In this document: positions 9,688 through 11,238 of the stretch, one piece after another
Position numbering within the stretch: the first letter of the stretch is position 1
How the letters are laid out: each line of letters starts with the position of its first letter
DNA from: Escherichia coli
GTDB taxonomy: Bacteria > Pseudomonadota > Gammaproteobacteria > Enterobacterales > Enterobacteriaceae
DNA length: 64,000 bases
Direction: 5' to 3' (one strand)
Assembly: GCF_044647545.1 (NCBI RefSeq)
Contig: NZ_CP172818.1
The notes under the pieces: model-generated
Seen by the model: the letters and a program-made list of their open reading frames with translations, nothing else
Databases searched by the model: none
Told to the model about the DNA's origin: nothing
Program-made: the position numbers and the translations under genes

Positions 9688-11238
9688 ATGCAACGTCGTG
9701 ATTTCTTAAAATATTCCGTCGCGCTGGGTGTGGCTTCGGCTTTGCCGCTGTGGAGCCGCGCAGTATTTGCGGCAGAACGCCCAACGTTACCGATCCCTGA
9801 TTTGCTCACGACCGATGCCCGTAATCGCATTCAGTTAACTATTGGCGCAGGTCAGTCCACCTTTGGCGGGAAAACCGCAACTACCTGGGGCTATAACGGC
9901 AATCTGCTGGGGCCGGCGGTGAAATTACAGCGCGGCAAAGCGGTAACGGTTGATATCTACAACCAACTGACGGAAGAGACGACGCTGCACTGGCACGGGC
10001 TGGAAGTACCGGGTGAAGTCGACGGCGGCCCGCAGGGAATTATTCCGCCAGGTGGCAAGCGCTCGGTGACGTTGAACGTTGATCAACCTGCCGCTACCTG
10101 CTGGTTCCATCCACATCAGCACGGCAAGACCGGACGTCAGGTGGCGATGGGGCTGGCTGGTCTGGTGGTGATTGAAGATGACGAGATCCTGAAATTAATG
10201 CTGCCAAAACAGTGGGGTATTGATGATGTCCCGGTGATCGTTCAGGATAAGAAATTTAGCGCCGACGGGCAGATTGATTATCAACTGGATGTGATGACCG
10301 CCGCCGTGGGTTGGTTTGGTGATACGTTGCTGACCAACGGTGTAATCTACCCGCAACACGCTGCCCCGCGTGGCTGGCTGCGCCTGCGTTTGCTCAATGG
10401 CTGTAATGCCCGCTCGCTCAATTTCGCCACCAGCGACAATCGCCCGCTTTATGTGATTGCCAGCGACGGCGGTCTGCTACCTGAACCGGTGAAGGTGAAC
10501 GAGCTGCCAGTGCTGATGGGCGAGCGTTTTGAAGTGCTGGTGGAGGTTAACGACAACAAACCCTTTGACCTGGTGACGCTGCCGGTCAGTCAGATGGGGA
10601 TGGCGATTGCGCCGTTTGACAAGCCGCATCCGGTAATGCGGATTCAGCCGATTGCCATTAGTGCCTCTGGTACTTTGCCAGACACATTAAGTAGCCTGCC
10701 TGCGTTACCTTCGCTGGAAGGGCTGACGGTACGCAAGCTGCAACTCTCTATGGACCCGATGCTCGATATGATGGGTATGCAGATGCTGATGGAGAAATAT
10801 GGCGATCAGGCGATGGCCGGGATGGATCACAGCCAGATGATGGGCCATATGGGGCACGGCAATATGAATCATATGAACCACGGCGGGAAGTTCGATTTCC
10901 ACCATGCCAATAAAATCAACGGTCAGGCGTTTGATATGAACAAGCCGATGTTTGCGGCGGCGAAAGGGCAGTACGAACGTTGGGTTATCTCTGGCGTGGG
11001 CGACATGATGCTGCATCCGTTCCATATCCACGGTACGCAGTTCCGTATCTTGTCAGAAAATGGCAAACCGCCAGCGACGCATCGCGCAGGCTGGAAAGAT
11101 ACCGTTAAGGTAGAAGGTAATGTCAGCGAAGTGCTGGTGAAGTTTAATCACGATGCACCGAAAGAACATGCTTATATGGCGCACTGCCATTTGCTGGAGC
11201 ATGAAGATACGGGGATGATGTTAGGGTTTACGGTATAA
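9688..11238 (+). CDS. cueO: Multicopper oxidase CueO (periplasmic cuprous oxidase), Tat-exported
   Basis: ORF 9649..11238; start at ATG 9688 gives [28 protein letters not shown] twin-arginine signal; copper-binding HxH motifs and Met-rich insert present. Confidence 0.93.

Follow-up and report, generated by a model that had tools for sequence, protein, structure and literature searches.

The stretch of Escherichia coli DNA analysed here (64,000 nucleotides, “the window”) carries a gene whose product contains a segment crowded with methionines. The preliminary description named the gene cueO and the segment the known Met-rich region of CueO. Is the gene correctly named, is the segment a genuine insertion in the protein, and what does it contribute to the enzyme? 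We consider, with a probability of about 0.95, that the gene is E. coli cueO, encoding a Tat-exported, CueR-induced periplasmic three-domain multicopper (cuprous) oxidase, and that the segment is the insert of its domain 3.

The mechanical list of open reading frames opens the cueO frame at a TTG codon (9649). The correct start is the ATG at 9688, with AAGGA upstream of it at 9676-9680, and the resulting product of 516 residues ends at 11238. This protein matches, with E = 0, some twenty distinct PDB sequences that bear the name “Blue copper oxidase CueO”. The NCBIfam equivalog model of CueO (NF008205) matches it over the full length (1-516) with 981.6 bits, for a cutoff of 525, and the insert is identical to that of the crystallised E. 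coli enzyme; both names given in the preliminary description are thus borne out. The Pfam families Cu-oxidase_3, Cu-oxidase and Cu-oxidase_2 score 111.4, 32.5 and 88.2 bits respectively, all above their gathering scores, and RefSeq annotates the identical gene as cueO.

The ligands of the T1 copper (H443, C500, H505 and M510) and of the trinuclear cluster (H101, H103, H141, H143, H446, H448, H499 and H501) are all present in the window protein, as are those of the Cu5 (M355, D360, D439 and M441), Cu6 (M358 and M362) and Cu7 (M364, M368 and M376) sites. Among the latter, D360 and the Cu6/Cu7 ligands M358, M362, M364 and M368 are carried by the Met-rich helix. The protein also displays the three cupredoxin domains, the four HxH motifs and the HCH...H...M motif of three-domain multicopper oxidases. 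An interrupted ORF, missing copper ligands or a failure to align with crystallised CueO would each have spoken against CueO; none of the three was observed, and no other result counts against this identification.

Two other assignments were rejected. The protein is not a member of the PcoA/CopA copper-resistance oxidases, scoring 120.3 bits with TIGR01480 (copper_res_A) for a cutoff of 478.95. With the FtsP/SufI model NF008135 it reaches 298.6 bits, below the equivalog cutoff of 581, and its copper ligands are intact.

The N-terminus is the same as that of K-12 CueO and includes the twin-arginine residues R3 and R4. Pfam TAT_signal matches residues 1-20 with E = 3e-4 and 20.9 bits, just under the gathering score of 22.7. 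The mature crystallised chains begin at residue 29, residues 1-488 of 1kv7 aligning to residues 29-516 of the window protein.

The window protein and CueO of E. coli K-12 (YacK; PDB 1KV7, 1N68, 3OD3 and 3NT0; deletion structure 2YXV) are identical at 512 of 516 positions. The four substitutions from K-12 to the window (A219V, S271N, A329T and A464T) all lie outside the insert, which is conserved residue for residue, and the two genes differ by 38 nucleotides, mostly in a synonymous manner. Copper ligands, Tat signal, CueR promoter and gene neighbourhood are all as in K-12. Cuprous oxidase activity and the copper tolerance phenotype have been demonstrated by experiment for the K-12 enzyme (PMC11494321). 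By analogy with this enzyme, to which it is 99.2% identical and whose insert it shares unchanged, the window protein would have the same cuprous oxidase activity and the same role in copper tolerance.

A pattern search for the CueR box returned a single exact match in the window, for 0.10 expected by chance. The spacer between the hexamers TTGACC and TATGCT at this site is 19 bp. The published CueR signal, ACCTTCCC-(5)-TGGAAGGT with a 19-bp spacer, lies in the yacC-yacK(cueO) divergon (PMC1526738). Judged from its sequence, the site is a predicted CueR-dependent promoter, with the palindrome inside a 19-bp spacer as in published CueR promoters. A generic sigma-70 scan, which allows spacers of 16-18 bp, found no promoter at cueO, as is expected with the 19-bp spacer there.

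On the other side of the gene, a terminator scan flagged in the cueO region only an uninformative minus-strand hairpin inside the gene. It missed the inverted repeat that separates cueO from gcd (Table 1) because this repeat has no T-run; the repeat is a putative bidirectional terminator. The gene order aceF-lpdA-yacH-acnB-yacL-speD-speE-yacC-cueO-gcd-hpt is the standard E. coli arrangement.

Table 1. Positions of the features of the cueO locus in the window.
Feature	Position	Strand	Basis or remark
MerR-type cueO promoter	9612..9642	+	pattern search, direct sequence reading, PMC1526738
-35 hexamer TTGACC	9612-9617	+	putative hexamer assignment
CueR box CCTTCCCGTAAGGGGAAGG	9616-9634	+	perfect CueR-type palindrome
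-10 hexamer TATGCT	9637-9642	+	putative hexamer assignment
cueO CDS, 516 codons plus stop	9688..11238	+	ORF list, PDB, NCBIfam, Pfam, RefSeq
Tat signal peptide, residues 1-28, MQRRDFLK...AVFA	9688..9771	+	Pfam TAT_signal, R3/R4, crystal chains
Met-rich insert, residues 355-400	10750..10887	+	identical in protein to K-12 and PDB sequences
Codon M355, Cu5 (substrate copper) ligand	10750..10752	+	PMC11494321
Met-rich helix, residues 357-369	10756..10794	+	residue range from PMC6155172; ligands from PMC11494321
Codon D360, Cu5 ligand, in the Met-rich helix	10765..10767	+	PMC11494321
Flexible Met/His/Gly/Asn loop, residues 370-398, including M376 (Cu7) and five His	10795..10881	+	PMC6155172
Codons D439-M440-M441; D439 and M441 are Cu5 ligands outside the insert	11002..11010	+	PMC11494321
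Inverted repeat ATGCCCGGA-TCTC-TCCGGGCAT	11258..11279		between convergent cueO and gcd; read directly

The insert reads MDPML...MNHGG, in frame with the rest of the CueO precursor, and its DNA starts with ATGGACCCGATGCTCGATATGATGGGTATGCAG and ends with AACCACGGCGGG on the plus strand. The preliminary description had placed it at 10750-10890. The start and the peptide are exact, and the end includes one codon too many (K401), the peptide ending at 10887. The 46 residues comprise 14 Met, 8 Gly, 5 His, 4 Asp, 3 Gln and 3 Asn. Methionine thus represents 30% of the insert (14/46) vs 3.2% of the rest of the protein (15/470; binomial P ~ 1e-10), and when all 64 kb are translated in six frames, the 46-residue windows with at least 8 Met are confined to the cueO frame at this locus. 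The enrichment in histidine is modest (5/46 vs 3.8%, P = 0.03), and the five His are all in the C-terminal half, from H381 to H398. The wording “extremely Met/His-rich” is therefore justified for methionine and overstated for histidine.

The preliminary description proposed an alignment with multicopper oxidases lacking the segment. A search of 1.84 billion representative proteins provided 150 diverse relatives, and 118 of them, of 420-700 amino acids (taken as full-length) and at most 65% identity, were aligned with CueO. The stretch between the anchors S354 and K401 has 0-10 residues in 92 of these 118 homologues, 11-19 residues in 7, and 20 residues or more in 19, of which 12 are also Met-rich; these lengths are approximate, the aligner being able to shift a few residues across the anchors, which does not affect the overall picture. 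All 12 catalytic copper ligands are kept in 113 of the 118. A smaller alignment (A2) displays the gap directly, with an FtsP protein (P0223; 714 bits with NF008135) and several copper-competent oxidases devoid of the insert. Among PDB sequences, the alignments of SufI/FtsP, the Thermus multicopper oxidase, CotA and bilirubin oxidases with CueO each consist of two stretches, with the break at about residue 341-358, and the alignment with the engineered deletion structure 2YXV breaks at residue 356. The proposed comparison confirms the insertion: the Met-rich segment is a true lineage-specific insert relative to most homologues.

Three E. coli-like proteins differ in domain 2. P0008 and P0011 (470-471 aa, near-identical) were examined as natural CueO proteins without the insert and rejected, since their deletions of 45-46 residues are in domain 2 and the insert is intact. 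P0002, a near-identical E. coli-like CueO, has a 47-residue internal duplication in domain 2, here also with an intact insert. These three metagenome and NCBI records are probably assembly artefacts.

The two halves of the insert do not evolve alike. The helix half (355 to ~379) is almost invariant between Escherichia and Citrobacter, whereas the loop half varies between genera in both length and sequence, the whole insert going from 46 residues in E. coli up to ~68 in P0121. The CueO proteins of Enterobacterales, including Citrobacter (519-544 aa) and Hafnia alvei (HaCueO; PDB 8R4F, deletion form 8R4H), are the same enzyme with the insert at the same position; P0121, with 65% identity to the window CueO, is also above the CueO equivalog cutoff. 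In these Citrobacter, Hafnia and P0121 relatives the loop half is longer and richer in Met than in E. coli, Citrobacter adding HGNMN-type units. The long Met-rich inserts contain for instance 17 Met in 68 residues (P0121) and 14 Met in 54 (P0159).

In the Citrobacter freundii-type cueO (L007, 1473-1532; P0038) the loop half is encoded by a 15-nt tandem repeat present in 4 copies of CAATATGAACCACGG with 88% matches. The Citrobacter CueO proteins of 539 aa and 544 aa differ by one HGNMN unit. The repeat suggests that the Citrobacter insert may change length by replication slippage, unlike that of E. coli. We infer that the length and composition of the loop half are free to evolve, through expansion of the 15-nt repeat in Citrobacter, because only the bulk Met/His content of this half matters.

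How does this insert compare with elements of other copper proteins? The E. coli paralogue FtsP (SufI) shares the three-cupredoxin fold of CueO and likewise carries a Tat signal, but lacks the insert and has degenerate copper ligands (P0223). FtsP is a cell-division protein and not an oxidase. Met-rich Cu(I) motifs (MxM, MxxM) are found in PcoA/CopA, CusF, CusB, PcoC/CopC and in the “Mets” motifs of Ctr1, where clustered thioethers bind and relay Cu(I) in oxidising compartments; the scaffolds and the positions of the motifs differ from those of CueO. The discussion of PMC11494321 likewise treats the Met-rich Cu(I) motifs of other copper-handling proteins. The Thermus thermophilus multicopper oxidase (PDB 2XU9), with its Met-rich hairpin, and Ochrobactrum CueO (6EVG) are three-domain multicopper oxidases with a Met-rich element near T1 and cuprous oxidase activity. 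Their Met-rich segments are nevertheless unrelated in sequence to the CueO insert and different in secondary structure, and the alignments break at the insert. Phenol oxidase activity did not increase when the Thermus hairpin was deleted (PMC11494321).

The mechanism considered here is taken from published experiments on K-12 CueO, whose insert is identical to that of the window. In the structures the Met-rich helix (357-369) and the loop that follows it (370-398) lie over the T1 copper, and together they hinder the access of bulky substrates. Most CueO crystals show the loop as disordered, 3OD3 being the only one that resolves it (PMC6155172). The insert covers both the T1 copper and the labile substrate copper Cu5 (PMC6155172; PMC11494321), and the idea of a flexible Met-rich region over the substrate copper site agrees with these structures. 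Cu5 is a labile fifth copper held by M355, D360, D439 and M441, while Cu6 and Cu7 are bound only by methionines of the insert (PMC11494321). The insert supplies only M355 and D360 to Cu5 (PMC11494321; PMC12041951).

Deletion of the insert classically increased phenol oxidase activity by about 33-fold and removed about 90% of the oxidation of chelated Cu(I) (cited in PMC11494321). The 2024 study itself found Cu6 and Cu7 dispensable and Cu5 the sole substrate site. In that study the deletions 361-396 and 358-407 kept 10-20% of the activity with Cu(I)-BCA and 57-75% with Cu(I)-Ferene, were essentially wild-type on electrogenerated Cu+, and gave strains with near wild-type copper resistance in vivo (PMC11494321). 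HaCueO, with its larger Met-rich domain, is better at oxidising chelated Cu+ (PMC12041951). The recruitment role of the insert has been seen in vitro only, with the artificial chelators BCA and Ferene. The 2024-2025 work shows that CueO can do without the bulk of the insert when it oxidises weakly chelated Cu+, and that copper resistance in vivo largely does not require it. That the insert “gives CueO its cuprous oxidase specificity”, as the preliminary description put it, is a fair summary of the classical view; in the light of the recent deletions it overstates the role of the bulk of the insert. This role is debated in the literature, and the Cu6 and Cu7 crystal sites appear functionally negligible.

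The best-supported account of these data has three parts: the insert would be a steric gate, a source of two Cu5 ligands and a collective thioether relay. CueO oxidises toxic Cu+ to Cu2+ and reduces O2 to water. The helix 357-369 packs over the T1 copper and, with the loop ~370-398, buries the site, which excludes bulky phenolic substrates. Cu5, formed by M355 and D360 of the insert and by D439 and M441 of domain 3, is where the substrate Cu+ binds and passes its electron to T1. The many solvent-exposed thioethers would act together as a transient, low-affinity Cu+ relay, stripping Cu+ from strong chelators to feed Cu5, and the domain would be dispensable when Cu+ is weakly chelated.

Another possibility is that the insert serves mainly in Cu(I) capture rather than in catalytic specificity, by helping apo-CueO to load copper or mature when copper is scarce, by buffering periplasmic copper or by docking a copper donor such as CusF or CopA. 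The near wild-type copper resistance of the deletion variants, and their full activity on unchelated Cu+, are in its favour, and the authors of PMC11494321 themselves proposed maturation or partner interaction. Moreover the loop half shows little conservation of either sequence or length, yet its Met richness recurs in distant homologues, which suggests selection on bulk metal-binding capacity. But several results argue against this role. Under anaerobic copper stress it is the catalytic activity of CueO that is needed and not its copper-binding capacity (PMC12510620). No extra Cu+ remains bound to CueO once excess copper is removed, and complementation data argue against docking of a partner (both PMC11494321). 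The advantage of HaCueO on chelated Cu+ fits a role of catalytic feeder. We therefore hold capture as the main role to be rather unlikely. It is similarly doubtful, although conceivable, that the selective value of the insert lies outside steady-state catalysis, i.e. in Cu(I) capture for the maturation of apo-CueO after Tat export, or in the handling of partner copper under host-like conditions, the loop then being a module whose capacity evolution can tune, with changes of length through repeat slippage in related genera. If true, such a non-catalytic value would refine a question already posed in the literature, and would be nothing peculiar to the window.

It is much less probable that the methionines are sacrificial antioxidants, which would scavenge ROS or HOCl around the copper sites and depend on the periplasmic MsrPQ system for their repair, a speculative proposal. 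Surface methionines are prone to oxidation, and periplasmic repair of Met sulfoxide acts on the Met-rich chaperone CusF during copper stress, as has been reported (PMC9302797). The CueO literature examined offered no CueO-specific evidence for such a function. Crystallographic binding of Cu(I) and Ag(I) to methionines of the insert points instead to metal handling, and the dependence of the deletion phenotype on the strength of chelation indicates metal handling rather than redox buffering (PMC11494321).

Could the Met-rich stretch simply be a low-complexity artefact, i.e. a sequencing or assembly error, a frameshift, or non-coding simple sequence caught in an ORF? Its strikingly biased composition (30% Met) is the reason to ask. 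The 161-nt insert segment is found at full length and with at least 95% identity in 5430 of the 5431 matching records, and in 5423 of the 5426 complete E. coli genomes. The sole exception is a pseudogene call with a frameshift, in the low-quality assembly of strain L37. Length variants were searched for across the 5,426 complete genomes and none appeared among the sampled matches, which are all exactly 161 nt. Tandem Repeats Finder, used in search of signs of slippage or artefact, detected no tandem repeat in the DNA of the window under the insert, and the GC content of the insert is normal (53.6% vs 54.5% for the whole cueO gene). The protein is identical there to many independent crystal-structure sequences.

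The variation between strains is of the kind expected of a coding sequence read in the cueO frame. When the window cueO is compared with three other E. coli alleles, 66 of the 79 variable sites fall at the third position of the sense codons, and in a 327-nt interval that covers the insert 10 of the 11 variable sites are synonymous in the sense frame. Purifying selection acts on the CueO sense frame, insert included. The chance that the stretch is an artefact is therefore negligible: conservation, crystal sequences and synonymous variation together refute it, and the opinion of the preliminary description, that the segment might pass for an artefact and is yet genuine, was well founded.

The same 327 nt correspond to an antisense ORF (10705-11031, minus strand) of 108 codons, uninterrupted in the window and with 19 His, which might be imagined as the real gene, the Met richness of the plus strand being secondary. 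This is next to impossible: CAT is the reverse complement of ATG, so that a His-rich frame follows mechanically from a Met-rich sense strand; a stop codon interrupts the ORF in the alleles of K-12 and O157:H7; 9 of the 11 variable sites are non-synonymous in antisense vs 1 of 11 in the sense frame; and the ORF has no Pfam match at E <= 1 and no RefSeq annotation. It is a by-product of ATG/CAT complementarity and not a gene.

The allele carried by the window calls for some additional observations. Its cueO is 100% identical in nucleotides to that of strain FDAARGOS_497, and the whole window is 99.88% identical to the genome of this strain. The form V219/N271/T329/T464 is a minority allele: over a 441-nt piece of cueO, identity to the window reaches 99% or more in only 165 of 5431 E. 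coli records, most of the others being ~97-98% identical with differences that are almost all synonymous. Of the 5435 places that match the cueO segment, ten lie on records with a plasmid label, and some genomes contain as many as 3 such places.

The cueO-gcd intergenic region (11239-11282) also varies. It measures ~44 bp in the window, ~46 bp in FDAARGOS_497, from which the window is separated by a 2-bp indel just past the hairpin, and ~200 bp in K-12 and O157:H7, the window region being ~155 bp shorter than that of K-12. The extra DNA of these two strains resembles a palindromic element of the REP/BIME type (GCCTGATGCGCTACGCTTATCAGGCCTAC...). Elsewhere, the BLAST comparison with FDAARGOS_497 splits at ~20243-20330 of the window, in the region of rpnC and a hypothetical protein, with overlapping query ranges and an offset of ~190-280 bp, so that FDAARGOS_497, compared with the window, has additional or duplicated sequence at this point. 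The 50 kb compared also contain some 18 small, dispersed gaps.

The Met-rich insert belongs to the textbook knowledge of a much-studied enzyme: it is already known, and essentially all E. coli genomes have it. [quoted passage not shown] Its value is one of quality control: a stretch of biased composition that looks like low-complexity sequence is a genuine, conserved and functionally characterised element of the protein, so neither annotation pipelines nor readers should mask or discard it.
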